Virus record (IMG/VR): IMGVR_UViG_3300018466_000001
Coordinates: 1-51,598 of that record
Length of the DNA stretch: 51,598 nucleotides
Source of the DNA: a virus
Reading direction: 5' to 3' (one strand)
How positions within the stretch are numbered: position 1 is the stretch's first letter; each line of letters begins with the position of its first letter. A program made the position numbers and the translations under genes. The notes under the pieces were generated by a model that was not told the origin of the DNA, searched no databases, and saw only the letters and a list, made by a program, of their open reading frames with translations. Shown here one piece after another: positions 3,286-47,189 of this stretch.

Positions 3286-4808
3286 TTGTAGGACACGTTT
3301 CCAGAGGTGGGAAGAGAACGGCGCGGCTTCGGTTCGTGGGTCAGCAGCAACTCGGTAATCAGCCACACCAGGGCGTCCAGACGGTTGGGCGACGGGTCTC
3401 CGGGCTCCCATGTGCAGAGTTCCTTCTCCAGCGCCACGAAGGTGCCCACGTGGTGCACGCGTCCGTCTTCGTAGAGCTTCTGGACGGGCTCGGCTCGGGT
3501 GCGCTTGCCCCGGCTGGCGTGGATCAGCTTCACCTTGGGCGCGTCAGGCACGGTGCCGATGGTGATCGCCACCATTTCGCCGCCGTTGTTGCTCTCGGCT
3601 ACCATGCGGTCCGCGTCCCAGCGCTTGAACGCCGCTACGGCTTCCTTGGCCCATGTCGCCGGCCCTCCTGCCGTGCTCGCGTCCTCAAGCACAAAGGCGT
3701 GCAGAATGCCCTTGATTCGCGCTACACCGCCCACGGCAATGCCGGCCTCGTCTCCACCCTCGGTAGCGTTCGGATCGATCCCCACGACGATGCGGAACAG
3801 GTCTGGCACGTTGACGGGCTTCTCGCGGAACGGATCAAGATCGCGCTCCCGGTTCCACAGTCCATCCTCTGACTCGTCTGTCTCGTGCTGCGCTTCGCGA
3901 AGGAACGCGGCCCTTCCCCACGTGTTCATTTGCGCTTCGCACGTTTCTATGCTCTGACCCGCCCACGTAGGCACGGCGTCGGTTATCTTGTACTGAGTGG
4001 GGACCGTGCCTGGAATGGCGTGATACCAATCTTTCGACAGGGGCGTTAGCGCGGGCTCGCAGAACACCTCTCTGCGCAACAGGAAATCCGCCGTGTTGTT
4101 GAGCAGCTTCGCGGCGATGCTGCCAGAGTGAATGACGTTCTGTACGAAAAGAACCGCTGCGTCGGTAGACTCTGCCGGGAGCACGCTCTGGGTTATGGTG
4201 GATATCTTCTTGTTGACCGTATCCTCCGTATCGTCCCTGTCGTCTACGTCGTCAAACACGAAAAGGTCTGGGCGATCACCCTCGATTTTTAGGCCGCGAG
4301 CCGCAGAGTCAAGCCCAAGAGCCAGCACGTTGAATCCGTTGTCGCACCGCAGCATGTCCACTCGCCAACCGAGGCTGCTTCCGTAGGGCCCGATCGCTCG
4401 CCCAATGCCCAGGTTCGTAAAGTGCGGAGCGATGTCCTGTAGGTGCTTGTTCGCCTGTGCCTGCGTTTTGGATATGTACAAGCAAAATTTGCGGGCCTGC
4501 CGCGCTCCCGTTCTCGTTGTCGCCAACTCAACAGTGGAGCTTTTGCCGCCTCCGCGAGGCCAGAGTTCCACCCGAGCATTTACGGGCCGCACACCACGAT
4601 TGAGCATCTCGAACCATTCCCACAAACGGACGTGCCTGTCCGCGAATGGGGATGATGTGGCGTGGGGGAAGTGCTTGGCAACCCACGTCCGCCAGTCTCC
4701 GGACGCACGCGGGCCGATCCGCTTGCCTTGCCCGGCGAAGTGGAACGGCCCTGTGCTTACCTGCGCCCAGTGCTTTAGGTTGGGCGGCGTGGTGTCCGGC
4801 CTGCTCAC
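3282..4808 (-). CDS. terL: Terminase large subunit
   Basis: 508 aa. Walker A-like LWPRGGGKSS and Walker B-like DLFVFDDVDD. The C-terminal half looks nuclease-like (VVGIDPN...). Sits upstream of the portal gene. Confidence 0.85.
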   Translation of the reverse strand: MSRPDTTPPNLKHWAQVSTGPFHFAGQGKRIGPRASGDWRTWVAKHFPHATSSPFADRHVRLWEWFEMLNRGVRPVNARVELWPRGGGKSSTVELATTRTGARQARKFCLYISKTQAQANKHLQDIAPHFTNLGIGRAIGPYGSSLGWRVDMLRCDNGFNVLALGLDSAARGLKIEGDRPDLFVFDDVDDRDDTEDTVNKKISTITQSVLPAESTDAAVLFVQNVIHSGSIAAKLLNNTADFLLRREVFCEPALTPLSKDWYHAIPGTVPTQYKITDAVPTWAGQSIETCEAQMNTWGRAAFLREAQHETDESEDGLWNRERDLDPFREKPVNVPDLFRIVVGIDPNATEGGDEAGIAVGGVARIKGILHAFVLEDASTAGGPATWAKEAVAAFKRWDADRMVAESNNGGEMVAITIGTVPDAPKVKLIHASRGKRTRAEPVQKLYEDGRVHHVGTFVALEKELCTWEPGDPSPNRLDALVWLITELLLTHEPKPRRSLPTSGNVSYK

Positions 4809-8100: not shown

Positions 8101-8339
8101 GAAGCGCTCTCAGGTGCTAGGTGGCAGTGGTGTTCGTGCGTGCCGATGGCGTGGCACTCCGGACAGGCGTGTACATTGAATCCCTGCACCTCGCGAGGGT
8201 TGACGAGGGTGAGCAGGAACGAGCCGAGCCGGAACGCCTCGCCTGCCGATAGGTCGGACGGCAGGACCAACTGCGCCTCAAAGTCTCTGAGCGGCACGGT
8301 GTAGACCAGTCCTCGACGCGTTGCGGTTTCGTTCGTCAC
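8097..8339 (-). CDS. Hypothetical protein (80 aa) with a CxxC/His cluster
   Basis: GTG start in a GTGA overlap. Ends ...HACPECHAIGTHEHHCH... Confidence 0.45.
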   Translation of the reverse strand: MTNETATRRGLVYTVPLRDFEAQLVLPSDLSAGEAFRLGSFLLTLVNPREVQGFNVHACPECHAIGTHEHHCHLAPESAS

Positions 8340-11065: not shown

Positions 11066-11569
11066 TCACGCACGGGGCGCCTGCCAAAGCTTGAGTGTCG
11101 TCCGCCAAACCCAATCTCCACCCGCCTCCTCGGGCACCACATGGACCACCTGAGCACGCATCCGAGAATACTTCTTCGGCATCGTTGCGGCGCTGCGCCA
11201 TGCCACGTCGGTTGAGTCAGAGGCGCGGTAGTAGACCACGTCATCCTCTACAGGCTCGCGGAACCACGCCTCACGCACGTACAGGATGACCGGCTCGGCT
11301 CCATCCACCGCGAAGAATGACCACGGGTTGTACAGGCGCTCGGTTACTAGCCCGTCTCGTTCGCTTACAGTATCCCCGCCTGCGTAACGCGCTACTGGCA
11401 CGTGCAATCCAGGCGACACGCCCCACAACTTGTCTGCGCGAGCTCGCGACAGGTCCGGCCCCTGCGCCATCAGGCTCTTGGGGCATGCGACAGTCACCGA
11501 TACCTCGCACGTCCCTTCCGCCAGAAGGGCGCGCACCTGTTCCACGGATAGCATGATGCTGCTAGGCAT
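11066..11569 (-). CDS. Hypothetical protein (167 aa)
   Basis: ATG at 11569 overlaps the upstream stop region. Confidence 0.5.
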   Translation of the reverse strand: MPSSIMLSVEQVRALLAEGTCEVSVTVACPKSLMAQGPDLSRARADKLWGVSPGLHVPVARYAGGDTVSERDGLVTERLYNPWSFFAVDGAEPVILYVREAWFREPVEDDVVYYRASDSTDVAWRSAATMPKKYSRMRAQVVHVVPEEAGGDWVWRTTLKLWQAPRA

Positions 11570-11786
11570 CGTCGTCCCTCCCTTCCGTGATCTCTCGTTC
11601 GCACTTCACGCATACCCAGCCTAGAACTGGATCGTGGCTGGCCTTTGCTTGATAGCAGTATTCGCATGGCACCTCTTCGGCACCACCCCCGAAGCCATGC
11701 CGCGCTCTTGCCGCAGCCGTGGCGGCGTTGCGGCGCATGCGCTCTGAGAACGCGTCCCACTTCGCCTGCTTCAGATCTCTGATCAT
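11562..11786 (-). CDS. Small zinc-ribbon protein (74 aa)
   Basis: Internal ATG at 11786. Has CEYC...CVKC. Confidence 0.45.
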   Translation of the reverse strand: MIRDLKQAKWDAFSERMRRNAATAAARARHGFGGGAEEVPCEYCYQAKASHDPVLGWVCVKCEREITEGRDDDA

Positions 11787-11829
11787 GGTTCCTCGTGAGA
11801 GTGAAGGCCCATCCAACCAGAGCCGTGCA

Positions 11830-12033
11830 TCACGGGCTCCTCCTCGCAGCAGAGCGGGCACCATCAGCGTCCGTTCTCGAAACGCCAACCTCTATCATTT
11901 CCACCACCGCCACGCCTTCCTGCCAGCAGCCCACGGGAGCGGTGTAGACGGGTGCGGCGCAGCCGCAGCACTCCACCTCGAACGGAGCAGGGCCGGTGTC
12001 TGCGAACGTGGCAACGATGTCCTCTTGTTTCAT
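11830..12033 (-). CDS. Hypothetical protein (67 aa)
   Basis: ATG at 12033. Sequence begins MKQEDIVATFADTGPAPFEVECCGC... Confidence 0.4.
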   Translation of the reverse strand: MKQEDIVATFADTGPAPFEVECCGCAAPVYTAPVGCWQEGVAVVEMIEVGVSRTDADGARSAARRSP

Positions 12034-12039
12034 GCTCCC

Positions 12040-12375
12040 TCACTTGTTTGGGTTCCGTCCGTCTTCTGCCCATCCCCAAATCAGAACCATGTCCATCCCT
12101 ACAGCGTACCGCTCCGCTTCTTCTGGCGTGGCTGTGCCGGACTTTACCAGCCTCTCCAGCCTATCCACCTCGGCACTCGCACGCTTGGCCTGAGACGCGT
12201 TCCTAAGCCCCTTGAACGCCTCCTCTGGCTCCCTGATGGTGCGTGGGAACTCATTGTGCCATGGTCTCCCCTGGCAGACGGTGCAGAGCGGCGCAGGGTG
12301 GTGCGGGAAGATCTCCGCCAGCGCCGTGTTGTCCACCGTGCGGCAGGCTTGGTTTGAGCAAACGAAGAGCGTCAT
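12040..12375 (-). CDS. Zinc-ribbon protein (111 aa)
   Basis: ATG at 12375 overlaps the DnaC-like stop (ATGA). Has CSNQAC...CTVC. Confidence 0.5.
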   Translation of the reverse strand: MTLFVCSNQACRTVDNTALAEIFPHHPAPLCTVCQGRPWHNEFPRTIREPEEAFKGLRNASQAKRASAEVDRLERLVKSGTATPEEAERYAVGMDMVLIWGWAEDGRNPNK

Positions 12376-22792: not shown

Positions 22793-23043
22793 CCCTCGGT
22801 CCTTTCCTTGGCGCATCCTGCGAAGAGAGTAAGCACCCTGTCCGCTACCCACGACGTGAAGTCACCAGCGCCGGTGTAACGCTCTTTCTCGCGCCACATG
22901 GAATCAGGCTGTGGCTCCCACTCCCAACGCACGTAGCCGCTTTCCGGGGACGATACGAAACTGACGTGACGGGGAGACGGGGTGCGGCGCTCTATGCGCT
23001 TCCACGGTTCGGAGCGATCGATGCGTTGCCATGGGATGCTCAT
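22789..23043 (-). CDS. Hypothetical protein (84 aa)
   Basis: ATG at 23043 overlaps the stop of ORF 23040-23258. Confidence 0.5.
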   Translation of the reverse strand: MSIPWQRIDRSEPWKRIERRTPSPRHVSFVSSPESGYVRWEWEPQPDSMWREKERYTGAGDFTSWVADRVLTLFAGCAKERTEG

Positions 23044-23112
23044 TCGCGTTCCTCGCGAGCCGGGCCGGAGTGCGTCACCTTCGCGCCGAAGGGACCGAAC
23101 AGTTCCGGATGC

Positions 23113-23364
23113 TTAGCCATGATACCGTCCAGCGTGCGTGCGTTCATGACTACGCGATGTTCCTTGGGGCGCTTGGGCGGCTGCTCCCTGTGTCTCAACC
23201 CATTTACCATCCATCCACCTATCCCACTCCATCGCCTGAGACGTGGCGGTGTAGTCAAAAACCAGATCGTCCGGCATGGCCTCGCTTACCTGAATAACCA
23301 GCGGCGGAGGGAGGCGCTGTATCTGCTCCACCATCTTCCGAAGTTCCGCCATGAAGTCGCTCAT
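23113..23364 (-). CDS. Hypothetical protein (83 aa); its 3' end conflicts with ORF 23040-23258
   Basis: ATG at 23364 (ATGA overlap). The C-terminal 30 aa look low-complexity, and the other frame ends in a plausible MNARTLDGIMAKHPELFGPFG... Confidence 0.4.
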   Translation of the reverse strand: MSDFMAELRKMVEQIQRLPPPLVIQVSEAMPDDLVFDYTATSQAMEWDRWMDGKWVETQGAAAQAPQGTSRSHERTHAGRYHG

Positions 23365-23561
23365 TCGATCTCCACTGCTACGATGCACCGCGCGACCTGC
23401 ACGCCGTACCTGCGCCGGTCGTTGTGGTAGATATTGAACCCGCCTCCGTAGGCACCGTTATACGAGGCGATGGCGTCCTTCCGGCGCTTGTCCACGGTGC
23501 AGGGGAGCGGCCAGCCTCCAGCGTTCACCACGCACCACATACGTACCGTTCTGGCGGTCAC
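23361..23561 (-). CDS. Hypothetical protein (66 aa)
   Basis: GTG/ATG start overlapping the XRE stop. Confidence 0.5.
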   Translation of the reverse strand: MTARTVRMWCVVNAGGWPLPCTVDKRRKDAIASYNGAYGGGFNIYHNDRRRYGVQVARCIVAVEIE

Positions 23562-23812
23562 GATCTCACCTCGCCTTCAAGCACTTCTAGGGGGTTGTCA
23601 GAGAGCAGGGAGGATGCCTTGACGCCCAAGTTAAGCGCTGTACGTTCCAGCGTCGTCAGGGTGGCGTTCCTCTTGCCCGTGCGCCAGAGGGAGGCGAGCT
23701 GCGGAGACACCCCGCTCTCCTTGGCGAACGACTCCGCGTCCAGCTTCCGCGATTCGCGGATCAGATCCAGGTTGCGCACTAGGCGCTGCCCCAGTGTCTC
23801 GGTAGTTTTCAT
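23558..23812 (-). CDS. XRE-family HTH regulator, paralog of 30193-30441
   Basis: MKTTETLGQRLVRNLDLIRESRKLDAESFAKESGVSPQLASLWRTGKRN. Shares a 22-nt identical stretch (gcggatcagatccaggttgcgc) with the paralog. Confidence 0.7.
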   Translation of the reverse strand: MKTTETLGQRLVRNLDLIRESRKLDAESFAKESGVSPQLASLWRTGKRNATLTTLERTALNLGVKASSLLSDNPLEVLEGEVRS

Positions 23813-23819
23813 GGCCTGA

Positions 23820-23848
23820 ATCATACAATCGTCGCAGCCGATGCACAA
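23820..23848 (-). promoter_or_regulatory. Promoter TTGTGC-17-TATGAT lying 7 nt from the ATG (leaderless-type)
   Basis: Minus strand, back-to-back with the plus-strand promoter at 23854. Confidence 0.45.
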
Positions 23849-23853
23849 GAGTG

Positions 23854-23882
23854 TTGACAAGACCGACGAGAGGCGCTAGACT
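23854..23882 (+). promoter_or_regulatory. Near-consensus promoter TTGACA-17-TAGACT driving the RNA island
   Basis: GAGTGTTGACA is shared with the promoter at 30504. Spacer is 17 nt. Confidence 0.6.
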
Positions 23883-23888
23883 GGTATT

Positions 23889-24353
23889 CAGCAAGCGGGG
23901 CAGGGTGGGGCTGTCGACAGCCCAATGGCGTGAATCCCTTCGCCTATCCACGTGGACTTTGAATCGGGTGCCACGGTACCGCCAGATTAAGTTGCACGGT
24001 CCGGCCGCCAAGAGGGGCCGCCCTGTCCCGCGTCTTTGTTGGTGGAGGGGAGAGTAGTACCGAAGCGCACGCGCTAGGTGAGACGTGGCAGGTCCGGCCC
24101 GAGAGGGTGACAATGCGGCCTCCGTCGCGCCGCTCTGCTGGAAAGCCGCCGTTTTGTTCGGTGGGCCGAGAGCGCCAGATTCCCGCGTGTGATGGAGCCG
24201 GGTAAATCGGGCATGGCGTACGTTGATCCGGCCTCTTCGTGCCGGGGAGTAGAAGCGTGTTCGGGGCCGGCGAAAGTGCAGCTAGGGACATGCGCAAGCA
24301 CCATGCGGCGGATTTGCTGCGTCGCACCCCCTTCACCTGAGCGGAGAACGACG
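23889..24353 (+). ncRNA. Candidate structured non-coding leader/ncRNA (about 465 nt)
   Basis: No credible ORF follows the strong promoter. GC-rich with many local inverted repeats, including the perfect 16-nt palindrome GGGCTGTCGACAGCCC at 23908-23923. Confidence 0.35.
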
Positions 24354-24584
24354 ATGGGCGACGTGCGGCAGGACATAACGGAGGAACAGGCCGAGTGGCG
24401 CATACGCAACGACGAGCCTACCTTCGCTGAGGTCTACGGCAAGCGGGTGCGCATCGTGGAGATGGGACCGCCGCCCAAGCGGACCGGCGAAATGCGACTC
24501 GTAACGGCGTGGCACGGCGGCAAGTTCCACACTCCGCGATTCTTCGCCCACAACTTTGGCAAAGAGGACGCACGGATAGGTTAG
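24354..24584 (+). CDS. Hypothetical protein (76 aa)
   Basis: ATG at 24354 with GGAG 9-12 nt upstream. Sequence begins MGDVRQDITEEQAEWRIRNDEPTFAEVYGKRVRIVEMG... Confidence 0.45.
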   Translation: MGDVRQDITEEQAEWRIRNDEPTFAEVYGKRVRIVEMGPPPKRTGEMRLVTAWHGGKFHTPRFFAHNFGKEDARIG

Positions 24585-24894
24585 CATCGGTTGCCCACGG
24601 GCCGTTAGGCGCAGGCGCCATCGTGGGACAAATGATTTGCGGTGCAGAACGCCGGCAACACAGGGCTCAGTGCAGGATGGAGCGCCAGTCCTGCCTGCAC
24701 GCAACCTTTGGGGTGGGGCTTCACCTGAGCGAAGGCGACCGTGCGGTGTTTAGTCAAGTACATAATTCCGAAAGGATTCAGGGTCCGGTGGGAATCAGCC
24801 GTGCGACCGTGGGATTAGAAGACCACAGCAAAGGGCAAGTGACCGCAGGCCGGGAGGCGACAGGAGCGCGCGACCGCTCCACCCGGCACCACAT

Positions 24895-25012
24895 GGAGGG
24901 CGTGGGCAAACTGGTAAAGCCGACGCGCAGAGCGGATGATTCTGGACGCGGAGCGCCGCTAGGCCAGCGGTAAGCACGATCCGGATGCGGGTTCGACCCC
25001 CGCCGCCCTCCC
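24895..25012 (+). ncRNA. Aberrant 118-nt tRNA-like element (8-bp acceptor stacked on a 5-bp T-arm)
   Basis: GGAGGGCG pairs with CGCCCTCC. T-arm is GCGGG-TTCGACC-CCCGC. D-like arm is GGC-AAACTGGTAAA-GCC. An 84-nt non-canonical insert contains the hairpin CCGCT-AGGCC-AGCGG. Confidence 0.4.
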
Positions 25013-25118
25013 TTCACCCGGTGTTCCCGTACGTCGCCCGGTCAAGGCCGATCCTCGCACCTAAGCGGGGCGGAAATGCAAAGTGGACGGCTCGCGTGCG
25101 GGGCATCGGGGATCTCTT

Positions 25119-25131
25119 GGAAACAGTTTCC
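25119..25131. repeat. Palindrome copy 6, GGAAACAGTTTCC
   Basis: In the ORF-poor RNA island. Extended match TGGAAACAGTTTCCGG is shared with copy 7. Confidence 0.9.
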
Positions 25132-25291
25132 GGAGCAGACGGTACCAAGCGAGAGGGGCGCGGCGGCGTCCGGTACGAGAGAACATGGGAGCCTGCCGGC
25201 GGAAAAGCCTCGCAAGAGGCGCAACCCCATAGACTGAGGCTGGTAGCGGGGTGGGGAATCCCGTCTCTCGTTTGGTGTGTCGCTCATCTGT

Positions 25292-25304
25292 GGAAACAGT
25301 TTCC
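25292..25304. repeat. Palindrome copy 7, GGAAACAGTTTCC
   Basis: In the RNA island, 97 nt upstream of tRNA-Gln. Confidence 0.9.
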
Positions 25305-25400
25305 GGCGGGCGGTCTACCGGTACGGTGCCGGGAGCCGAAAGGCCACGGAGCGCAGCGCTGCGTTGATCACGCCTAACCCCGTAGGCCGTCCGCCACGTT

Positions 25401-25472
25401 CGCCCTGTAGCACAACGGTTGTGCGCCCGCCTTTGGAGCGGGAGGTTCTCGGTTCGAATCCGAGCAGGGCAG
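25401..25472 (+). tRNA. tRNA-Gln (anticodon UUG)
   Basis: Hand-folded cloverleaf. D stem GCAC/GTGC, anticodon stem CCCGC/GCGGG, loop CTTTGGA, T arm CTCGG-TTCGAAT-CCGAG. Has a C1/A72 mismatch and G73. No CCA encoded. Confidence 0.85.
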
Positions 25473-25831
25473 TTGGGTGTTGGCGGTAAATAGACCGCCT
25501 GTCGTTTGGAGCTACTGGGAACCGCGCGTTCTGTTCACGGCCCGGACGCTGGTAGCCTGCGGAGGAAGTCCGGATAACACGGCGAAGCGGATGCGCCAGC
25601 CGCCGGGAATCTCCAGAGTCGATACCAGACGGCACCGCCAGCACCCTTTGTCCGCCCGCTCTGTCGCGACAGTGCCTAGCATGCGGGGCTAGGCGAAACC
25701 TGATGGAGTGGGCCACGGTGAAATCGGCTGGAGTGCGGCGTAGGAGCCTTGCGCAAGCGCCGTCGCCAGCCTCCCAAAAGGGCGCCGTGGCTCACAGGTT
25801 TCCACCTCACCAAAACACTCAAGAAATCCCA

Positions 25832-26752
25832 ATGAGCGACGGCCGGCTACACTCCTACCCGAAGGTCTGGAACCTGGGGCATCCTAACCTTGCCGAACTG
25901 TTTTCCGGAGAGGTGGTGGTGCAGGAGAAGGTGGATGGTTCGCAGTTCTCCTTCGGCGTGGTTGGCGGGGTCCTCCTGCTCCGGTCGAAGGGTGCCACGC
26001 TCTACCCGGAGACGAACGACAAACTGTTTCGGGGTGCGATTAACACCGCCGTGCGGCTCTTCAACGAAGGATTGCTGCCGGAGGGTCTGACGTACCGAGG
26101 CGAAGCGTTCATGAGCCACAAGCACAACGCGCTCGCATACGAACGGTGCCCAGCGGGGAACTTCGTGCTCTTCGACGTGGACGATGGCCTAGAGAGCCGA
26201 TTCGACGCAGCGCGCCTGCGTGACGAGGCCGCGCGGCTGGGGCTGGAGGTGGTGCCTACGTACTTCGTGGGGGAGGTCGAGTCTCTGGAGGGCCTGCAAC
26301 CCTTCCTCGCGACTCCTAGCGTGCTGGGCGGGCGCACAGAGGGCATGGTGGTGAAGAACTACGCCCGACGGGGTCGCGATGGCAAGATGCTGATGGGGAA
26401 GTTGGTGGCGGACGATTTCCGCGAGATCAACGGCAAGGAGTGGAAGAAGAGCAACCCCACCCGCGCCGACGTGATTGAAACGTTGATCGAACGTTTCCGC
26501 ACCGAAGCGCGGTGGGCCAAGGCGGTGCAGCACCTTCGCGAGCGTGGGGAGATCACAGGCGATCTGCGCGACATCGGCAAGTTGATCCGCGAGGCTCCGC
26601 AGGACGTACGCGAGGAGTGCGAAGACGAGATCAAGCAGGCGCTCTTTGACGCGTTCTGGAAGGACATCTCCCGTGGCGTGACTCGCGGGCTTCCGGAATG
26701 GTACAAGGCGCAGGTTGCGGGTGAGCAGGTGTTCGCGGGCCCGGAGCCTTAA
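25832..26752 (+). CDS. ATP-dependent RNA ligase-like nucleotidyltransferase
   Basis: Motif I QEKVDGSQ (KxDG), YRGEAF, FVLFDV, motif IV/V-like TEGMVVKN and GKLV. Start placed at ATG 25832 (MSDGRLHSYPKVWNLG) and is uncertain. Confidence 0.75.
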   Translation: MSDGRLHSYPKVWNLGHPNLAELFSGEVVVQEKVDGSQFSFGVVGGVLLLRSKGATLYPETNDKLFRGAINTAVRLFNEGLLPEGLTYRGEAFMSHKHNALAYERCPAGNFVLFDVDDGLESRFDAARLRDEAARLGLEVVPTYFVGEVESLEGLQPFLATPSVLGGRTEGMVVKNYARRGRDGKMLMGKLVADDFREINGKEWKKSNPTRADVIETLIERFRTEARWAKAVQHLRERGEITGDLRDIGKLIREAPQDVREECEDEIKQALFDAFWKDISRGVTRGLPEWYKAQVAGEQVFAGPEP

Positions 26753-26902
26753 TTACGGCGTCACCATGCGTGCCGACCGTCACGGAACCGTCTCGGTAGC
26801 GACCATGCTGCCGGGGCGGTTGCGTTTGCGCGCTAGACGCATCAGATTGCCGCCTGCGTACGTCGCCAGCAGGCCCACAAGCCACGAAGGGAGGACTGCA
26901 CC

Positions 26903-27079
26903 ATGCCAGGAGCCACGGCAGAGCAGCGCGAGCGTCTGAGGCGCGTTATCGAGAGCGAACCGTTCCTTACAATGCAGACAGGTCCGGGGACCGGGGGCGG
27001 TGGCGGCAAGGGCGATCCGGAAGAGCCACCTCCTCCCCCGCCCACGCCGCCCGAGGGTGGGAGCGACGGAGAAGGCTGA
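26903..27079 (+). CDS. Pro/Gly-rich small protein (58 aa)
   Basis: ATG at 26903 with GGGAGG 8 nt upstream, followed by a terminator hairpin. Below the ORF-track cutoff. Confidence 0.45.
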   Translation: MPGATAEQRERLRRVIESEPFLTMQTGPGTGGGGGKGDPEEPPPPPPTPPEGGSDGEG

Positions 27080-27084
27080 CGCGT

Positions 27085-27114
27085 AGAGGGCCGGCGATCA
27101 CTCGCCGGCCCTCT
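27085..27114. terminator. Perfect 12-bp GC-rich hairpin between convergent genes
   Basis: AGAGGGCCGGCG-atcact-CGCCGGCCCTCT. Overlaps the last codons of 27098-27304. Confidence 0.5.
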
Positions 27115-27304
27115 GGTCTTCCAGTAGGCCATCTTCCCTGCACCATCGGCAGGGCTTGCCGCTGTTGACGTTCGACAGCCTGCGCTTGTGCCGGAAGCGC
27201 TCGCACCATACCCACGGGTCCTGTTCCTCCCTGCGCAGGATCTTCCGAGCCATGGCCCGCTCCCAGCGGTAGGGGCTGTCCTGTAGGTCTCGGAGGGTCA
27301 TCAT
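27098..27304 (-). CDS. Small basic protein (68 aa) with Cys pairs
   Basis: MMTLRDLQDSPYRWERAM...CERFRH...CRWC. Starts 5 nt after the PP-loop gene stop. Confidence 0.5.
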   Translation of the reverse strand: MMTLRDLQDSPYRWERAMARKILRREEQDPWVWCERFRHKRRLSNVNSGKPCRWCREDGLLEDQRAGE

Positions 27305-27308
27305 GGCG

Positions 27309-28082
27309 TCACCCCTCCACGAAGCAGCCGCAGCCGCCAATATCGTATTCGTCCACGTCGCCGCAGGACACGCGGGAGCGGAGTACCGAGAGCGGCAGGG
27401 GCTTCGTGGTGCCGCCGCGCCTGTCGCGCAGGATAGCGACGTTGCCGATTTGGGCACGTAGCATGTTCTCGTTTCTCTCCCACTCCGCAAACACGTCCGG
27501 CAGAGTGCGCAGTAGATGGGCGAAGTGGCCCTGCCCCGCCTTTACGCAGCCGCCGCCGCAGTTGTTGTGCGCGAACCCGAGTTTGTAGAGGCGCGGAACC
27601 TCGATACCACAGGCGGCAAGGTCTTCCAGAATATCCTCTTTCATCCTGTACGGCGCATCGCACAGGGGGGCCTCACAACGCCATCCGGGGCGGTTCTTCC
27701 GCACGCCTTCAAGGCGGTGCTCTTCGGTCCAGTCGATGCCGTAGTAGAGCACCGTGTCTGCCGGATCGCAGTTGGCCTCCGCCCACGCGTTTGACACGTT
27801 TTGTTTAAGCTTTATCGAGCAGTGGGCCACTCTGGAGTTACCCAAAAACCCCTTTTTGCCGTGAGTACGAAACACCTCCCACGGCGTGCGGCCATCGGCC
27901 AGGATCAGTAATTCGGCCCCCACATCGCGCGCTGCTTCTCCCAAGAATCGGTACAGGTCTGCGTCCTCAATGAGGGTGTCGGTGAAGAGCAGCACCATAT
28001 CCGCCGTCCCGAATCTCTCCGCAACGCGCTTGGCGGCGGCCCAAGACCCTACTCCGCCGGAGAACATGACAACGTGTCTCAC
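27309..28082 (-). CDS. PP-loop ATPase, PAPS-reductase-like family
   Basis: GTG at 28082 (GTGA overlap). Has VVMFSGGVGSWAAAKRV (SGGxxS PP-loop), LLFTDTLIEDADLYRF, and Cys clusters NNCGGGC and GGCGCF. Confidence 0.7.
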   Translation of the reverse strand: MRHVVMFSGGVGSWAAAKRVAERFGTADMVLLFTDTLIEDADLYRFLGEAARDVGAELLILADGRTPWEVFRTHGKKGFLGNSRVAHCSIKLKQNVSNAWAEANCDPADTVLYYGIDWTEEHRLEGVRKNRPGWRCEAPLCDAPYRMKEDILEDLAACGIEVPRLYKLGFAHNNCGGGCVKAGQGHFAHLLRTLPDVFAEWERNENMLRAQIGNVAILRDRRGGTTKPLPLSVLRSRVSCGDVDEYDIGGCGCFVEG

Positions 28083-28879
28083 AAGAGCACCGCCGTCCTC
28101 TCCGCGCGTGCTGCGCTCAGCACTTCCTCGCCCCACTCGCATACGTTGGTCTCTGAGCGCCGCTTTGCCACCGTCAGGGCACGTTCGGCCAGTTCCGCCG
28201 CTCTCGGGTAGTCTCGCATGATCGTGGCGGCCACAGACGCGTGCACGAGGTTCCTTGCCGCGTGTTCGTGGTGGGGGAGTCCAGCGAAGATGAAATCCAG
28301 GGCCACACCCGCGCTGCGGTACTTGTTGGGCGACGACATCAGGGCTGCCGCGTACATGGCGTTCGCGGCAGCGGCCATGTGGAACCTGGGGTGATCCATG
28401 CTGACCGGAACGACTCGCCATGCGTGGAAGGCGTGCGAGGCGCTGTCCCTGCACTGCGGATGGGCGTACATCGTCTCCTCTGCGAAGTCGGCAAGCAGGC
28501 CGGTGATCTGCGGGGCCTTCCTGTTCCGCTCGGAGTACAGTTGGAACGCCTTCGCTCCCCACTCCCTGCGTGCCTTGGGAATCCGCGCCTCCTTGCCTGT
28601 CACGTACAGATCGTGAAGGCTCGGCCCTATCCAGTGCGAGAGGCCATGCCCCACGGCCACGGCCATCGCTTCCTGAAAGCAGGACAATGCCTGCTTGGGC
28701 TCTGCCCTGGACAGGTACACGCGGCCCAAGCAGGCGAAGGCGTGATACGCCACTTCCGGCACCTTCTCGGCGTCCGCTTCCGACAGCGCGGCAGCAACGG
28801 CCATCTCGCATGCGGGCAGGTCTCCGTCTCGGCGTTCTTGCCGGGCGGATGCGAGGAGGATTTCTGCGTTGGAAATCAT
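28079..28879 (-). CDS. All-helical, TPR-like repeat protein (266 aa)
   Basis: ATG at 28879 (ATGA overlap, inside palindrome copy 8). Ala/Leu-rich helical repeats. Confidence 0.45.
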   Translation of the reverse strand: MISNAEILLASARQERRDGDLPACEMAVAAALSEADAEKVPEVAYHAFACLGRVYLSRAEPKQALSCFQEAMAVAVGHGLSHWIGPSLHDLYVTGKEARIPKARREWGAKAFQLYSERNRKAPQITGLLADFAEETMYAHPQCRDSASHAFHAWRVVPVSMDHPRFHMAAAANAMYAAALMSSPNKYRSAGVALDFIFAGLPHHEHAARNLVHASVAATIMRDYPRAAELAERALTVAKRRSETNVCEWGEEVLSAARAERTAVLL

Positions 28880-28883
28880 TTCC
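28871..28883. repeat. Palindrome copy 8, GGAAATCATTTCC
   Basis: Contains the ATG of the TPR-like gene (GGAA ATG ATT TCC = MIS). Confidence 0.9.
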
Positions 28884-29133
28884 GATGAAAGCGAATGGAT
28901 TCGCCTGCCACGTAGCGGTCCTGCACTGCGGAAACACCGAAGCCGGGAACGCCGAGAGTGGCGCAGCGCATGTTGCAGGCGGACGAGTGATTCATCTGCG
29001 TGCCGTTTGGGTTGGCCCAGCAGCCCGCACAGCAGTAGGCGAGCGCGGCGGCCTTCGGGCGGCCACAGCCGCAGGTGTCCGTGGCGACCTCGTTGCCTGC
29101 CGCGTCCAGCAGAGGCGGATACGGCTTGCTCAC
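28876..29133 (-). CDS. Cys-rich small protein (85 aa)
   Basis: TDTCGCGRPKAAALAYCCAGCWANPNGTQMNHSSACNMRC. ATGA coupling at both ends. Confidence 0.5.
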   Translation of the reverse strand: MSKPYPPLLDAAGNEVATDTCGCGRPKAAALAYCCAGCWANPNGTQMNHSSACNMRCATLGVPGFGVSAVQDRYVAGESIRFHRK

Positions 29134-30053: not shown

Positions 30054-30206
30054 CTACAAGGTCCACCTCGGCTGCATCAGCGTAGGCCAAAGCGCGGCGA
30101 TACGCTCCATCCTGCGGAGACGGGCGCGCAGTTCCGCGTTCTCAAGCGCACGATCGGTCGGGCCTACGCAGGCGTCTGGCGAGCGCAGCGCTTCAGTCCT
30201 GTCCAC
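30054..30206 (-). CDS. Possible 50-aa leucine-zipper-like protein
   Basis: GTG at 30206. Contains RALENAELRARLRRMERIAAL. Start uncertain. Confidence 0.3.
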   Translation of the reverse strand: MDRTEALRSPDACVGPTDRALENAELRARLRRMERIAALWPTLMQPRWTL

Positions 30207-30441
30207 GTAGCACCTCCGCAGGCTCTTTAGCCAGTAGTAAGCCGGGGTCAACTCCGATATTCTCTGACACCTGTCCGACGCGGTGTAGGGACGGTGCGTG
30301 CTTTCCGGTTCTCCAGAGAGAGAGCAGCCGGCGACTCACCCCCGACTCGCGGCAGAACGCTTCGGTGTCGAGCTGTCGGGCGTGGCGGATCAGATCCAGG
30401 TTGCGCGCGAAGCGCTGCGCTAGCGGCGTGGTCTTGTTCAT
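30193..30441 (-). CDS. XRE-family HTH regulator, paralog of 23558-23812
   Basis: MNKTTPLAQRFARNLDLIRHARQLDTEAFCRESGVSRRLLSLWRTGKH. Confidence 0.7.
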   Translation of the reverse strand: MNKTTPLAQRFARNLDLIRHARQLDTEAFCRESGVSRRLLSLWRTGKHAPSLHRVGQVSENIGVDPGLLLAKEPAEVLRGQD

Positions 30442-30448
30442 GGAAGAC

Positions 30449-30477
30449 ACTATAACCGGTGACGCCATCCTGCGCAA
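30449..30477 (-). promoter_or_regulatory. Promoter TTGCGC-17-TATAGT lying 7 nt from the ATG (leaderless-type)
   Basis: Read on the minus strand upstream of 30441. Confidence 0.45.
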
Positions 30478-30503: not shown

Positions 30504-30532
30504 TTGACAGATGGGATGTGGTGTGATATTAT
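30504..30532 (+). promoter_or_regulatory. Near-consensus promoter TTGACA-17-TATTAT driving the cassette 30577-33788
   Basis: GAGTGTTGACA motif. Inverted repeat GGATGT-N14-ACATCC spans the spacer and -10. Confidence 0.6.
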
Positions 30533-39134: not shown

Positions 39135-39481
39135 TAGACCTCCCGAAGCAGCAGGTTGAGCGTGTCGTTGAATTCGCTCCAGTCGGCCACGTTTCCGGAT
39201 ACGTCAGGACCCACCTCGGCGCTCTCCGCCGTCACCTTGCAAAGAACCTCTTCCTCGCGAATCACGCAGACCACCGGGCCGTCCGCGATGGCTGATTCAA
39301 GGGTGGCAACATCCTCCGGCAGCATCGGCAGGCTTTCGCCTTCCCACGCGCGCGCTGTCGCAGAAGTCCCGTCCAGCAGCGTGTTGGCGAGAGAGCGCAC
39401 CGCCTCCCCGATCACGCCGTCCATCCGCTTTTTGAAGCGGACCATGCGGACTTCCTGACCCGCAATTGTGAGCAGGATCAC
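39134..39481 (-). CDS. Tail protein (115 aa; distal-tail position)
   Basis: GTG start overlaps the tape-measure stop (GTGA). Confidence 0.45.
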   Translation of the reverse strand: MILLTIAGQEVRMVRFKKRMDGVIGEAVRSLANTLLDGTSATARAWEGESLPMLPEDVATLESAIADGPVVCVIREEEVLCKVTAESAEVGPDVSGNVADWSEFNDTLNLLLREV

Positions 39482-42400
39482 CGGGGCTCCGGGTAGGATG
39501 CGAGTTGCACGTTAAGCGCCGGGTTTCCTCGCGCGAGGTCGCGCAGCCCGTAATACCACTTCCTGTACATGTCCTGAAACGTGTTGTCCTCCGAGCCATT
39601 GAACACGATTGTAGGTGCGATGCTCACACTCTGCTGGACGGGCGCAACGGTTTGTGCGGCGCGGGACTGGCTCACCTCCGGCACGGTGCGAGGCGCAGAA
39701 GGAAGCGCGGCGAAGCGGTAAGGCTCGATCTTGAAGCCGTCGACCGCGTTGATGAGCGACTCCGTTAGTTTGTCGGCGGCCTCGGATGTCTTCTTCAACG
39801 CATCCTCGAAGGACATCCCCTGTAATTCCTTGCGCTTCTCCGCCATCTCCTTGGCGGCGTCCTTGAAGCCGTTGCCAAGGTCGATCATCGCCTGCCCTGC
39901 CTTCACCAACGGGTCTCCGGGAGAGCCGGGAAGCTTGTTGACCAGCCGCCCGATACCCCGAACCAGCGAGCCGATTGCTGTCGCGATTGCACCTGCTACC
40001 TTGGCGAGGATTTCACCCAGGTAGGACGCGACCACCGCGACAACCTTGAACACCGGGAACAGCAGCCGCAGCACGGGGATCATCAGCAGGGACAGAATCT
40101 CGCCCAGCATGCGCAGGGGTAGCGTGAGCGCGTCCAGTGCTGGTTGTAGCGCCTGAAAGAAACCCGTGGTGACTTCCATGACGGCGGCGAAGGGCACGGC
40201 CTTGGAAAGGGCCGTGGCGAGTCCGGCGCCACCCTTCACCGCCTCGGCCGCGTAGGACGATATGTTGGACGCGAACTGCCCGCCGGCAGAAGCCGCCTGC
40301 TCCACCGCCCGGACCAGCACCCGGCCAGCCTGCAACGCGCTCTCGCGAAGGGTGAGCAGGGCGGTGCTCACCAGCCCAAGGTTCTCCCCGAAGCCGTCTC
40401 CGAACATGCTGCCGCGCGCCGCGTTGCCCCCGCTGGGATTCAGCGCACGGTTGGCGTTGGGATTGAACATCCCCGTCATGTTGTTGACCGGCACCGCACC
40501 CATGTTCGGCGCCCTGCTGGCGAGGCCGTTCCACTGGGCCGCCATCTCCTGCAACTCGCGGTTCGCGATCTGTAGTTGCAGGTTCAGTCGCGCGAACGCC
40601 TGCACCGCTCCGTCCGGAGCCGCCGCGCCCATCTTGCCCAGCGCGGCGCCAGCCTGCGTGATCCTGTCCGTCAGGCTGTCAACGAGCGTAAGCTGCTGCT
40701 GGATGTTCTGCGGCAGGTCGTTCTTGAAGGTCGCCCCGGAGAACATGAAGAGCGCCTTCATATCCGCCGTGAGATCCTGTAGCGCACGCCGCTGGGCGGC
40801 CATCTTGTCCGCGCCTCCCGTCAGGTCCAGCACGGGCGTGCGAGGCTCCAGCGCCCGCGCCTGTCGAGCGTGGAGCTCGTTGGTGATCTCACCCAGTTCA
40901 CGGGCGCGATCATTAATCATCCCTTCGACCGTCGCCAACTGCTGGCGCTTGGAATCGATCAGGGGATCTTCCAGCGGTACGTTGATCGTGGGAACGCCCA
41001 AGGCGCGGTCAAGGGCCGTAGCAGCGCGCGCGTACCGACGAAGCGGACCCGGCTTGGGGGCCTCCTGCGGCGCGCCCAGCAACTTCAGATCGTCCGCCAG
41101 CGCGTTGCGCGTGCGGATCAAAGCATCCGTCGCGCGCGACTTCGCCATCAGGCTGGACTGTAGTACCGCATCGTCCATGGACAGCAAAGACGAACGGAAC
41201 TTCGACGCCGCCGCCTCGGCATCGGCCGCAGCCGCGAGCGCTTCCATCCCCACCATGACGAAGGATGCCGCGATGATGCCCAGTCCGATCACGATGGGTC
41301 CGCTCGCCAGCAGCAACGGCAGGAGTCCGATGGAGAGAGCCGTTGCCAGCGTGCTTACCGCCGAGATCACCCCACCGATAAACAGCACCAGCGGTCCGGC
41401 GGCGGCGGCCACGGCGGCGAAGGAGATGGCCGTACGCAGCGTGTACGGGTTCACCTCGCGCACCTGAGAGAGCAGGTTCGCCAGCCCATTCACCAGCGGG
41501 ATGACGGCCGGCAGGAGTTGTTCCCCGATGGCGGCGCGCGTGCGAAAGAGCGCATCGTTCATGTTCTCGAACGCGTTCCCCACGCCACCCGTCACGGCCG
41601 GCAGTTTCAGCAGTTGCTCCGTCAGCCCCTCCACGAAGGCGGTGGCCGAAAGCCCGGACTTCTGCAACTTCTCCGTATCCGCCGTCCCGAACGCCGCCTG
41701 CATTGCCTTGCGGACCTGCGGCACCCGCTCGGAAAGCTGGTTGATCTCCTCCGCGCTGATCTTGCCCTTGCTGGCAATCTGCGTGAGCGCCAGCGTCACC
41801 CCGTCCAGGTCAGCCTTGCCCTTGCCCACGGTCGCCAGCGCGTTGCCGAAGGCCATCAGGGACCGCTCGGCACCCTTGGCGCTGAAGCCGGCCGCCTGTA
41901 GCGAGACGGAGCCGCGAATGGCCTCCTGAAAGCCAAGGCCGGGCAACTTCGCCACGTCCTGCAACCGGGCCAGTTGCCGCTCCGCCTCTTCCGCGCTCCC
42001 CGCTACGGCGATCAACCCGCGCTTCAGGCTGTCCATCTCGGCGGCGGCCTTGACTACCGATCCGGCCGCAAAGGCGATGGGGAGCGTGACGCCGAGGGTA
42101 AGCTTTAGCCCTGTCGCCATGAAGCGGTCCGCGATCTCCTTGGCGGCCTTTTGCGCGGGCGTGAAGCCTTCCGACAGCGCTTTCTGCGCCTCGTTCACCC
42201 GCACCACGAAGCGGCCAAAGGCCCCGCCTGCCTTGTCTACCTTGCTGGCGAGCGCGGTTACTTCGTCGCCGGCCTGCTTGCCTGCCCCCACGAAGCGCCC
42301 CAGCGCGTCTCTACCGCTGTTCGTGGACCGGGTGAGGGTGTCTACCGCTGTGGAGGCCGTACGCGCCGCAGGAGCGATGCGGGTAAGCGCGGGAGCCACC

Positions 42401-42684
42401 CGCTCCGCAGGCTGCGCCAACTGCCGGAAGCGCTCACTGGTGCGGCCTACCCCTTCGCCTACGTTGGCTATGGCGCGGGCGGCTGCGTTGGACGGCTGCA
42501 CCACGCGCGAAAGCCCCGCCTCCGCCTTTGCGGTGGCAGAGGTGAGGTTGCTGGAGAACATGCCGGACAGGCGTTCCAGATGGCCCGCCAGTTCCAGCGT
42601 CCCGCGCTGCACGGCGGCGAAGGCGGCCAGCATGTCGCTGGGGTCCGCCTCCATCGTCGTAACCACTCGGGCAATCTGTACCAT
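39478..42684 (-). CDS. Tape measure protein
   Basis: 1068 aa, Ala/Gly/Leu-rich, with central hydrophobic segments. Lies immediately downstream of the G/G-T chaperone pair. Confidence 0.85.
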   Translation of the reverse strand: MVQIARVVTTMEADPSDMLAAFAAVQRGTLELAGHLERLSGMFSSNLTSATAKAEAGLSRVVQPSNAAARAIANVGEGVGRTSERFRQLAQPAERVAPALTRIAPAARTASTAVDTLTRSTNSGRDALGRFVGAGKQAGDEVTALASKVDKAGGAFGRFVVRVNEAQKALSEGFTPAQKAAKEIADRFMATGLKLTLGVTLPIAFAAGSVVKAAAEMDSLKRGLIAVAGSAEEAERQLARLQDVAKLPGLGFQEAIRGSVSLQAAGFSAKGAERSLMAFGNALATVGKGKADLDGVTLALTQIASKGKISAEEINQLSERVPQVRKAMQAAFGTADTEKLQKSGLSATAFVEGLTEQLLKLPAVTGGVGNAFENMNDALFRTRAAIGEQLLPAVIPLVNGLANLLSQVREVNPYTLRTAISFAAVAAAAGPLVLFIGGVISAVSTLATALSIGLLPLLLASGPIVIGLGIIAASFVMVGMEALAAAADAEAAASKFRSSLLSMDDAVLQSSLMAKSRATDALIRTRNALADDLKLLGAPQEAPKPGPLRRYARAATALDRALGVPTINVPLEDPLIDSKRQQLATVEGMINDRARELGEITNELHARQARALEPRTPVLDLTGGADKMAAQRRALQDLTADMKALFMFSGATFKNDLPQNIQQQLTLVDSLTDRITQAGAALGKMGAAAPDGAVQAFARLNLQLQIANRELQEMAAQWNGLASRAPNMGAVPVNNMTGMFNPNANRALNPSGGNAARGSMFGDGFGENLGLVSTALLTLRESALQAGRVLVRAVEQAASAGGQFASNISSYAAEAVKGGAGLATALSKAVPFAAVMEVTTGFFQALQPALDALTLPLRMLGEILSLLMIPVLRLLFPVFKVVAVVASYLGEILAKVAGAIATAIGSLVRGIGRLVNKLPGSPGDPLVKAGQAMIDLGNGFKDAAKEMAEKRKELQGMSFEDALKKTSEAADKLTESLINAVDGFKIEPYRFAALPSAPRTVPEVSQSRAAQTVAPVQQSVSIAPTIVFNGSEDNTFQDMYRKWYYGLRDLARGNPALNVQLASYPEPR

Positions 42685-46091: not shown

Positions 46092-47189
46092 TCAGGTGAA
46101 GGTGGGCGCCGTGTAGACTCCGCCGCTCCCAGCGTTCGCCCACAGGATCGCCCCGTTGGTGCGCGTCCACGCGCCGAAGCCGAACAGGGACGCCATGTGC
46201 CGGGCGTGCAGAAGGAACAGCTCCGTCTCCGCGTCGATGTAAAGGCCCTGCAACTGGCGCTCGGGCGGGATGCGCATGCGGAGAGGCTTGCGCGCATCGC
46301 TCGCGTCGAAGGCGAAGTAGTACTCGGCAGGCATCCACGGCTTCGTCCAGACTTCCGCGCCGTGGAAACGGCCGATGGCGCGGTTGTCCAGCCGGGACAT
46401 GTCAAGCACGCCGTCCGCCCGGTTGTTGGCGGTGCCGGGGATGATGCCGGCCTCCACGTACGGCGCGAAGTCCGTCAGCGTCTTTACGACCGCTTCCTGC
46501 GCCCTGTTGATGTAGATGCGCAGCGCGCCGCCGTGATCGTGCTCCACCACGTTGTCCACGAGCGCGATCAGGGCCGTGTTGAGCCCGGCGCCGGACGTGC
46601 TCGCCGTGGCGACGTAGTGCGTGTGCGTTGCCCCGTTGAACGAGAGGGCGTTGCGGTTGATCGGAATGGGGTCGCCGTCCGCGTTGAGCAGGCGCTTGAC
46701 CGCCAGCGTCTCGCCCACGGCTTCGGTGGCGAAGCGCTCGACTGCGGTAAAGTTGGTGGGACCAAAGAGGGTGTCGCGGATGCCGCGCCGCAGGGCGTTG
46801 ACATGACCGCGCTGCATCAGCAGTTGCTTTTCGATCATGTCCGAGACGGTGGAGCGGATGAAGTAGTCCCGCGTCCAGCCGGTGGCGATCTGGCGCTTGC
46901 GCATCGGCCATGCGACCTTGCCGCGAGCCTGTGCCTTCTGCGTCCGCACCTCGCCAAACTCATCCACTTCTTCCATGTTGGCGTCCTGCTCGACCCCATA
47001 CGTCCCCGTGCGCTCCGTGGTAGGGGCAACCAGATCGCCAAGCATGTTCTGAACCTGCGCGTTGTGCGCAGCCAGGGCATCCGTGAGCGGCTGGACGAGG
47101 TTTTCTACGCCGTAGTCGATGATGCGGCTTTCGGCCGCGTCGCGGTTGCTGAGCAGATCCGCGATTGTGTAGGTGCCAGTTACGGCCAT
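46092..47189 (-). CDS. Major capsid protein
   Basis: 365 aa, directly after the scaffold and decoration-like genes. The long plus-strand ORF 46197-47606 is its antisense shadow. Confidence 0.7.
   Translation of the reverse strand: MAVTGTYTIADLLSNRDAAESRIIDYGVENLVQPLTDALAAHNAQVQNMLGDLVAPTTERTGTYGVEQDANMEEVDEFGEVRTQKAQARGKVAWPMRKRQIATGWTRDYFIRSTVSDMIEKQLLMQRGHVNALRRGIRDTLFGPTNFTAVERFATEAVGETLAVKRLLNADGDPIPINRNALSFNGATHTHYVATASTSGAGLNTALIALVDNVVEHDHGGALRIYINRAQEAVVKTLTDFAPYVEAGIIPGTANNRADGVLDMSRLDNRAIGRFHGAEVWTKPWMPAEYYFAFDASDARKPLRMRIPPERQLQGLYIDAETELFLLHARHMASLFGFGAWTRTNGAILWANAGSGGVYTAPTFT

Follow-up and report, generated by a model that had tools for sequence, protein, structure and literature searches.

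What fills nearly 2 kb with scarcely any coding sequence in the otherwise tightly packed genome of a tailed phage, and how does it relate to the RNA ligase gene into which it leads? The question arises at positions 23854 to 26752 of IMG/VR virus record IMGVR_UViG_3300018466_000001, a 51.6-kb sequence of 63% G+C (51,598 nt; hereafter, the window). An initial annotation described this island as a promoter-driven stretch, poor in open reading frames (ORFs), that holds a tRNA-Gln, an aberrant tRNA-like element, a repeated palindrome, and several GC-rich stem-loops, and that ends in a ligase gene. We tentatively favor the view that the small-RNA genes of the island, including a c4-family regulator, form a cassette that is transcribed as one unit and cut by tRNA-processing enzymes, with the ligase being a loosely associated RNA-repair gene. 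Two findings support this view: a match to the Rfam family c4-2 is also present in the analogous promoter-proximal noncoding leader of a second phage locus, L060, and a structured element at the 5' end of the island is kept in these two phages, which have the ligase as their sole common protein.

A noncoding island behind a single promoter

The near-consensus promoter that was described upstream of the island is evident (10 of 12 matches), and it is the only sigma-70-like match within the 4.5 kb from 23000 to 27500, where shuffled sequences give 0.7 +/- 0.9. It faces 1.95 kb in which codon periodicity is seen in a single ORF (24354-24584). The periodicity of GC content by codon position is strong in this ORF, in the ligase gene (25830-26750), and in a helix-turn-helix (HTH) gene to the left (23560-23810), but is flat (maximum minus minimum of 0.2 or less) across 23890-24340 and 24600-25800. 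The longer chance ORFs of the flat stretches match no Pfam family, and the public gene call for the same contig leaves the region nearly empty. From these three observations we conclude that about 1.7 kb is truly noncoding, and the description of some 2 kb with one credible small ORF is borne out. The identifiable elements of the island are all on the plus strand, as is the promoter. Together with the ligase gene they form a rightward block in a genome whose genes mostly point leftward, flanked by the leftward HTH gene and a leftward PAPS-reductase-like gene. The elements are as follows:

23854-23882, plus strand: sigma-70-type promoter, TTGACA-17-TAGACT
23893-24031, plus strand: 5' structured element of about 140 nt
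24014-24040, plus strand: terminator-like GUCUUUGUU after the 5' element
24042-24335, plus strand: noncoding segment without codon periodicity
24354-24584, plus strand: small protein gene, 76 amino acids, codon periodicity 0.35
24585-24895, plus strand: noncoding segment without codon periodicity or an Rfam match
24896-25012, plus strand: tRNA-like RNA of 117 nt
25118-25133: palindrome TGGAAACAGTTTCCGG, copy 1
25134-25275, plus strand: noncoding "unit 1" between the palindromes, without periodicity or an Rfam match
25291-25306: palindrome TGGAAACAGTTTCCGG, copy 2
25312-25390, plus strand: c4-2-like small RNA (Rfam RF02944)
25400-25473, plus strand: tRNA-Gln(UUG)
25482-25509, plus strand: hairpin GGCGGUAAAUAGACCGCC followed by terminator-like UGUCGUUUGG
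25510-25831, plus strand: noncoding ligase leader, without periodicity until about 25780 and without an Rfam match
25832-26752, plus strand: ATP-dependent RNA ligase gene, Rnl2-like

Small-RNA modules and their counterparts in a second phage

At a relaxed threshold, the only non-tRNA Rfam signal in the window is the match at 25312-25390 to c4-2 (RF02944), which is a distant relative of the c4 RNAs of phages P1 and P7 within Rfam clan CL00128. The match extends over the entire model (positions 1-79 of 79) on the transcribed strand, with the consensus helices and two nonstandard pairs, and scores 34.4 bits (E = 6.6e-5 in the island and 1.5e-3 in the whole window). Its layout is a 10-bp closing helix, UAC, a 4-bp helix, a GAAA-capped hairpin, a second hairpin, and CGCC-UAAC. 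A control set of 116 kb of related high-GC phage DNA contains no c4-2 matches; in the roughly 170 kb scanned, they occur in the leaders of the window and of L060 and nowhere else. The tRNA gene that begins 10 nt downstream is, as initially described, a canonical tRNA-Gln(UUG), and its identity is certain from ARAGORN and from Rfam RF00005 (63 bits, against a cut-off of 29); it has a C1.A72 mismatch, G73, and G37, and CCA is not encoded. The check by covariance models that had been proposed thus recovers the tRNA, and elsewhere it returns only the sub-threshold c4-2 signal.

Relatives of the island were sought with blastn and nhmmer in a comparative set of loci around ligase relatives (25 from IMG/VR, 10 from Logan, and one genome locus), and L060 is the only one. 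Its ligase is 73% identical to that of the window. In L060 a 637-nt noncoding leader lies behind the promoter TTGACG-17-TAGGTT, about 7 kb upstream of the ligase gene, and its positions 1066-1222 match window 23893-24031 (blastn, 70% identity, E = 4e-8). This is the 5' element, composed of a closing helix, short hairpins, and a long conserved hairpin (CGUGGACUUUGAAUCGGGUGC / GUACCGCCAGAUUAAGUUGCACG). RNAalifold assigns to the two sequences a shared fold with 34 pairs, eight of which have changed on both sides in a compensatory manner, and the pair cells are 100% standard compared with about 41% in slid registers, such that the covariation is suggestive of a conserved RNA fold. The L060 leader also includes a c4-2 match of 27.7 bits at 1231-1316, a second copy at 958-1058 that is sequence-related to the c4-like RNA of the window, and tRNA-like T and D arms, and the order of the modules differs from that in the window. 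Neither element is more widely seen: the 5' element has no Rfam match, our own covariance model for it (R2) finds no further copies in 454 kb of related loci, and our model of the c4-like RNA (R1) finds none in 437-454 kb.

The tRNA-like RNA at 24896-25012 has the canonical acceptor, D, and T arms of a tRNA but lacks an anticodon arm, so that the initial label of an aberrant tRNA-like element is apt for the arms it has, while Rfam tRNA models remain silent. It has a 7-bp acceptor stem (GAGGGCG/CGCCCUC), U8, a D arm GGCA-AACUGGUAA-AGCC with GG in the loop, and a T arm GCGGG-UUCGACC-CCCGC; an insert of 64-65 nt replaces the anticodon arm, and CCA is not encoded. It does not pass as a complete cloverleaf by RF00005 or by standard tRNA finders. 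There is no Rfam tRNA or transfer-messenger RNA (tmRNA) match at E <= 10, and ARAGORN calls it only with the -i option, as a "tRNA-Pro(agg)" with a 31-nt intron and two mismatches in the anticodon stem. A constrained cloverleaf-like fold has an energy of -48.3 kcal/mol, compared with -51.1 for the minimum free energy (MFE) fold, with a z-score of -0.65. We considered and rejected two other identities for it. A tmRNA has no Rfam or default ARAGORN match here, and the low-threshold call of a "permuted tmRNA" is an artifact; a remnant of an attP site is at odds with the presence of both acceptor strands and with the lack of an integrase among the 78 ORFs of the window that were scanned.

In the favored reading, the phage is probably an uncultured high-GC siphovirus and the island would head its rightward early (immunity-side) operon. 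The promoter at 23854-23882 would start transcription that can continue for about 3.2 kb, up to a hairpin at 27084-27115, and modules would lie end to end in its first 1.95 kb: the 140-nt 5' element, the 76-amino-acid ORF, the 117-nt tRNA-like RNA, an unidentified unit, and the c4-family RNA abutting tRNA-Gln(UUG). This precursor may be cut into stable small RNAs by RNase P at the 5' ends of the tRNA and the tRNA-like RNA, and by RNase Z or exonucleases at the 3' ends, in which case maturation of tRNA-Gln by RNase P would at the same time set the c4-like RNA free; for such a release, the one line of support is the position of this RNA 10 nt before the tRNA 5' end. By analogy with P1 and P7, the c4-like RNA could be an antisense or structural regulator of phage genes, and it is the element most likely to regulate the cassette. 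Three sites with a hairpin followed by UCGUUUGG, together with two operator-like palindromes, divide the island and could meter read-through into the ligase gene, which would itself be an RNA-repair gene that is separable from the island and frequently accompanied by tRNA genes.

Several observations weigh against this reading. The c4-2 score is below the curated (gathering) cut-off of Rfam, which is 41 bits, and no antisense target of the c4-like RNA stands out in 23883-27100: its longest Watson-Crick complement there is 9 nt, a length reached by 1477 of 2000 shuffles. (A candidate target within the ligase ORF was set aside, as the matches of 12-13 bp require G.U pairs and the longest Watson-Crick match is 9 nt and not significant.) The covariation in the 5' element comes from two sequences only, and the tRNA-like elements of the window and L060 cannot be aligned. 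Relatives of the island are absent from the cultured phages of INPHARED. Pattern scans of IMG/VR returned no 5'-element cores and no c4-like cores, and 32 single palindromes at chance level; in a scan of Joint Genome Institute (JGI) metagenomes, all 42 matches have unrelated flanks and were dismissed as chance. There is also no thermodynamic signal for structure in the island, where the mean folding z-score in 120-nt windows, relative to dinucleotide shuffles, is -0.05, compared with +0.14 in the flanks. Because folding energies are no lower than those of shuffles, the GC-rich stem-loops highlighted in the initial annotation are a product of base composition and do not stand out. Lastly, about 1.2 kb (24042-24335, 24585-24895, 25134-25275, and 25510-25831) has no homolog, Rfam match, or excess fold stability, and L060 is the single comparative partner.

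Some further features of the island are of note. Hairpins with similar weak U-tracts (GUCUUUGUU, CUCGUUUGG, and GUCGUUUGG) are situated at about 24040, 25275, and 25509. The segment at 24042-24335 could be closed by pairing of GGUGGAGGGG (24042-24051) with CCCCUUCACC (24326-24335), as in its MFE fold (z = -0.8, not significant), and it ends in CACCUGAGCGGAG, within which is the ribosome-binding site of the small ORF. This ORF has GGAGAA 7 nt before its ATG and a single homolog (61% identical, in the gene-dense contig L062), and no match in Pfam, PHROG, or NCBIfam. The following segment contains a second copy of CACCUGAGCGAAGG (24723-24735), the AT content of the island peaks within it at 24748-24781, and a gene caller places in it a 98-amino-acid ORF that has no Pfam match. 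Unit 1 ends in a hairpin (25246-25264) and terminator-like CUCUCGUUUGG, and shares a repeat with 25495-25509. The c4-like RNA and tRNA-Gln are bracketed by 14 bp of complementarity (25304-25317 with 25491-25504), which forms when 25300-25512 takes its MFE fold (z = -1.9) and competes with the hairpin at 25482-25509. We also observed that a motif, (CUU)CACCUGA(G/A)(C/G)G, recurs just 3' of RNA modules in the leaders of both phages (window 24331-24346, 24719-24734, and 25009-25018; L060 948-957 and 1058-1067), with its first window copy carrying the ribosome-binding site of the 76-amino-acid ORF.

The ligase, the palindromes, and the surrounding genes

The ligase belongs to PF09414 (E = 9e-11, 42.6 bits against a cut-off of 27) and phrog_548 (E = 2e-24). 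The RNA-ligase motifs that had been recognized in it, KVDGS and EGMVVKN, are motif I with K33 (at about 25928) and motif IV (at about 26339), and they fall on columns (K33, D35, G36, E170, G171, V173, and K175) that are invariant in a 27-sequence alignment. An AlphaFold model with a predicted local distance difference test (pLDDT) score of 88.8 comprises a nucleotidyltransferase domain and a helical C-terminal domain. Its best Foldseek match is full-length T4 Rnl2 (2hvr_A, E = 1.2e-9, template-modeling [TM] score 0.47), followed by the trypanosome editing ligase REL1, Naegleria Rnl5 (NgrRnl), archaeal Rnl3, and fungal Trl1. Thus among the Rnl types, to which comparison had been suggested, the predicted fold indicates an Rnl2-like enzyme; sequence-only searches of the PDB gave nothing significant. 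Homologs are 298-316 amino acids long, in agreement with a start at 25832, and no Shine-Dalgarno sequence precedes this ATG. With 3438 proteins at E < 1e-30, the family is large yet uncharacterized.

Although the island ends in the ligase gene, as initially described, the two are separable: the L060 leader is distant from its ligase gene, and the closest ligase relatives (59-76% identity; L058, L059, L105, L109, L112, and L113) sit in gene-dense early regions, from which we conclude that the pairing of the island with the ligase is not conserved. Of the 25 IMG/VR loci, 7 have tRNA genes within 3 kb of the ligase relative, and in L020 and L106 they are immediately adjacent, a loose association that fits a putative role in RNA repair. 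In L106, a ligase gene encoding a 64% identical protein is preceded by a nonperiodic, unannotated gap of 676 nt and followed directly by seven tRNAs and a skipping-rope RNA (56.8 bits). The elements around that ligase gene, in L106 coordinates, are:

8145-8211, minus strand: type II hammerhead ribozyme (43.3 bits)
11218-12126: tRNAs
11828-11908: skipping-rope RNA

Two other phages that carry the ligase have elements of about 80 nt (L001 2224-2307 and L008 794-874) that match the Rfam tmRNA model over its tRNA-like domain only; they end in CCA and are directly followed by a Shine-Dalgarno sequence and start codon, and could represent "mini-tmRNA" or alanine-tRNA-like genes. Among species-representative genomes, a single one has a close relative of the ligase (56% identity), namely a Longimicrobiales metagenome-assembled genome (L111, contig CBDCVV010000007.1); this is a hint that the lineage of the ligase, perhaps together with the phage itself, is tied to Gemmatimonadota. 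The phage host is probably not a proteobacterium.

The palindrome TGGAAACAGTTTCCGG does occur in two exact copies in the island, as had been stated, yet it is not specific to it. Its core, GGAAAY-N-RTTTCC, is found 13 times across the window with none expected, and the 16-mer with two or fewer mismatches matches five times with 0.00 expected. The 13 (T)GGAAAY-N-RTTTCC(A) sites are located at:

16157, 16956, 17718, 19038, 22564, 25119, and 25292 (first half)
28871, 29924, 38043, 44673, 45459, and 50654 (second half)

Given this genome-wide distribution, the palindrome is an operator-like DNA motif and not a feature of the island, and the family looks like a set of operators for a dimeric DNA-binding protein. 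Three sites overlie the ATG starts of minus-strand ORFs (16171, 17732, and 22578). ORFs that begin with "METVS" at palindromes were dismissed as artifacts, because TGG...CCA belongs to the palindrome. Two paralogous regulator genes lie in the window:

23558-23812, minus strand: HTH_3 (XRE-type) regulator gene, divergent from the island promoter
30193-30468, minus strand: second HTH_3 gene, divergent from a rightward block that starts at 30511

The XRE-type gene beside the island is real: it has an HTH_3 domain (Pfam, E = 1.1e-6), matches PHROG transcriptional regulator and repressor families, and has coding periodicity. Its protein finds no homolog besides itself among 5.8 billion proteins, and the paralog gene has 69% nucleotide identity to it (over 23672-23814). 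The suggestion that it controls the island has adjacency as its only basis, and we do not regard this control as supported; the palindrome is absent from the promoter itself.

To the right of the ligase gene, a perfect 14-bp GC hairpin between convergent units is likely a bidirectional terminator, as judged from its predicted fold (z = -2.8 on the plus strand and -4.0 on the minus strand in a 120-nt fold scan), and would mark the end of the rightward transcript. This hairpin, the convergent gene beyond it, and three further genes of the phage are located as follows:

27084-27115: perfect 14-bp GC hairpin, AGAGGGCCGGCGAG / CUCGCCGGCCCUCU
27309-28937, minus strand: PAPS-reductase-like gene (phrog_424), convergent with the ligase unit
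3282-4808, minus strand: large terminase (PHROG)
39478-42684, minus strand: tape-measure protein (PHROG)
46092-47189, minus strand: major head protein (PHROG)

The window has no DNA-level match to cultured phages in INPHARED, and cultured-phage terminases are 30-50% identical to part of the window terminase at the protein level. One of the scanned ORFs contains a D12-class N6-adenine DNA methyltransferase domain.

Alternative readings and known systems

A different account of the island would make it a tRNA-repair or anti-defense module, in which the phage's own tRNA-Gln(UUG) and Rnl2-like ligase replace or reseal a tRNA cut by a putative host anticodon nuclease, and the tRNA-like RNA is a decoy or a substrate. 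The ligase is nearest in fold to T4 Rnl2, which seals nicks, its relatives have tRNA genes nearby in the loci noted above, and the tRNA-like element retains acceptor, T, and D arms while lacking an anticodon loop. Plain codon supplementation by tRNA-Gln is moreover not compelling, because the phage makes little use of CAA (45 of 243 glutamine codons in 25 confident genes), a count that would be informative only in the light of the host. However, Rnl2-type enzymes require 3'-OH/5'-P ends, and no end-healing enzyme (a kinase/phosphatase such as Pnkp) was found among the 78 ORFs, in keeping with the absence already remarked on in the initial annotation. About three-quarters of ligase relatives have no nearby tRNA, the relatives closest to the window ligase are those in gene-dense early regions, and the RNA next to the tRNA resembles the regulatory antisense RNA c4-2 rather than a repair substrate. 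The account also leaves out the c4-like RNA, the 5' element, and the other 1.2 kb. We consider this module unlikely. A reading that we find less probable still is that the island is regulatory DNA (operators, a promoter, and possibly an origin) and decayed genes, or nonfunctional spacer, with tRNA-Gln, the 76-amino-acid ORF, and the ligase as its only functional parts and the c4-like and tRNA-like matches as relics or chance. A fold stability equal to that of shuffles, a c4-2 match under the curated cut-off, palindromes that belong to a DNA-type operator family of 13 sites, an adjoining HTH regulator gene, and the lack of homologs for most of the island in the collections searched are all as expected for such DNA. 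What argues against it is that 1.7 kb of unused DNA is unusual in a tightly packed 51.6-kb phage, that the 5' element is kept with compensatory changes in the promoter-proximal noncoding leader of an unrelated phage, that both leaders, and nothing else in about 170 kb, have c4-2 matches, and that the elements all share the strand of the promoter.

The modules might instead be domains of one or more large novel "ornate" RNAs of 0.5-1 kb, of the GOLLD or ROOL kind and perhaps architectural in function, co-transcribed with the tRNA. GOLLD and ROOL RNAs often adjoin tRNAs in prophages and are possibly co-transcribed with them (PMC5737381). The noncoding blocks of 470 nt and 1250 nt that flank the small ORF and the long-range complementarities within the island would be compatible with this. 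No large RNA of Rfam matches, at E <= 1 in the window or E <= 10 in the island, the thermodynamic signal is absent, and the different module order in L060 points to independent small units, which makes a single large ornate RNA very improbable. We therefore retain the small-RNA cassette as our preferred, if tentative, reading. A broader version of it is possible but on balance doubtful: the island and the L060 leader would represent an undescribed phage "leader RNA cassette" outside Proteobacteria, with a new 140-nt RNA class, tRNA-shaped processing or decoy modules, and distant c4 RNAs, forming an RNA-based, immunity-like circuit shuffled between unrelated phages. If the cassette reading is true, the locus physically links a tRNA with an RNA of the c4 family and offers a testable route for maturation of the latter; an early transcript begins with a new conserved RNA fold; RNA modules pass between high-GC phages that are unrelated; and the Rnl2-like ligase family (> 3400 members) gains an RNA-rich genomic setting. 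Should it be wrong, what remains is unusual spacer DNA between a tRNA and a ligase.

Of the known systems, the tRNA region of T4 yields a single transcript that is processed into tRNAs and the stable RNAs "species 1 and 2," and T4 has an RNA ligase gene as well. The window is similar in having a tRNA among small RNAs and an RNA ligase in the same phage, but there is one tRNA, the ligase is Rnl2-like and not Rnl1, and with no healing enzyme among the scanned ORFs the locus does not belong with T4-type Rnl1/Pnkp tRNA repair. With T4 Rnl2 itself the ligase shares motifs I and IV, a two-domain organization with a helical C-terminal domain, and the best structural match (2hvr), although identity is about 16% and the TM score about 0.47. 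YrlA and other Y RNAs, from Rsr-RtcB operons, are likewise tRNA-mimicking RNAs beside an RNA ligase, and the L060 leader has a weak YrlA match (820-931, 30.3 bits against a cut-off of 69). A Y RNA reading was nonetheless rejected: the window has no YrlA match, no Ro60/TROVE gene was found in the 78 ORFs, the ligase is ATP-dependent and Rnl2-like rather than RtcB, and the model fires on tandem-tRNA junctions, as with a sub-threshold match at L106 12080-12180. It fires where the T arm of one tRNA or tRNA-like module meets the D arm of the next; the L060 match thus probably reflects abutting tRNA-like modules, and such junctions probably give rise to false Y-RNA calls where phage tRNA genes are clustered. 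The island resembles the GOLLD, ROOL, and skipping-rope RNAs that adjoin prophage tRNAs (Weinberg et al. 2010, 2017) in having structured RNAs in a phage tRNA neighborhood, and a true skipping-rope RNA is in the L106 array, but none of these families matches the window, whose modules are small and modular. To our knowledge, the small RNAs found beside phage tRNAs (T4 species 1 and 2, GOLLD, ROOL, and skipping-rope) still have no assigned function.

Another parallel is with c4 in the immI operon of P1 and P7. Almost all known cases of RNA-based phage immunity and regulation, such as P1 c4 and P4 CI, come from phages of enterobacteria. The operators of P1 are also scattered across its genome, as are the palindromes in the window; like the P1 C1 operators and the stoperators of L5, these are many near-identical sites far above chance, although here the binder is putative. 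In P1, c4 is an antisense RNA of 77 nt that arises by processing and represses the synthesis of Ant (PMC8546580 and references cited therein). Both it and the RNA in the window are phage RNAs of about 80 nt in which a closing helix encloses two hairpins, and both lie in an untranslated operon leader behind a repressor-side promoter, where the window RNA, like c4, would be co-transcribed with the genes that follow. The P1 RNA matures out of a longer transcript, and in the window a tRNA abuts the c4-like RNA. The two differ in that the window RNA scores under the family cut-off, that complementary target boxes of the a and b type were not found, and that no icd/ant-like antirepressor gene follows, the next gene being the RNA ligase. 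The tRNA, the ligase family, and c4-type RNAs are of known kinds; on comparative support that is thin, what is new is their combination, in which a c4-family RNA is joined to a tRNA and accompanied by a tRNA-shaped RNA without an anticodon arm and by a new conserved 5' fold, far from the enterobacterial models and with modules common to an unrelated phage.

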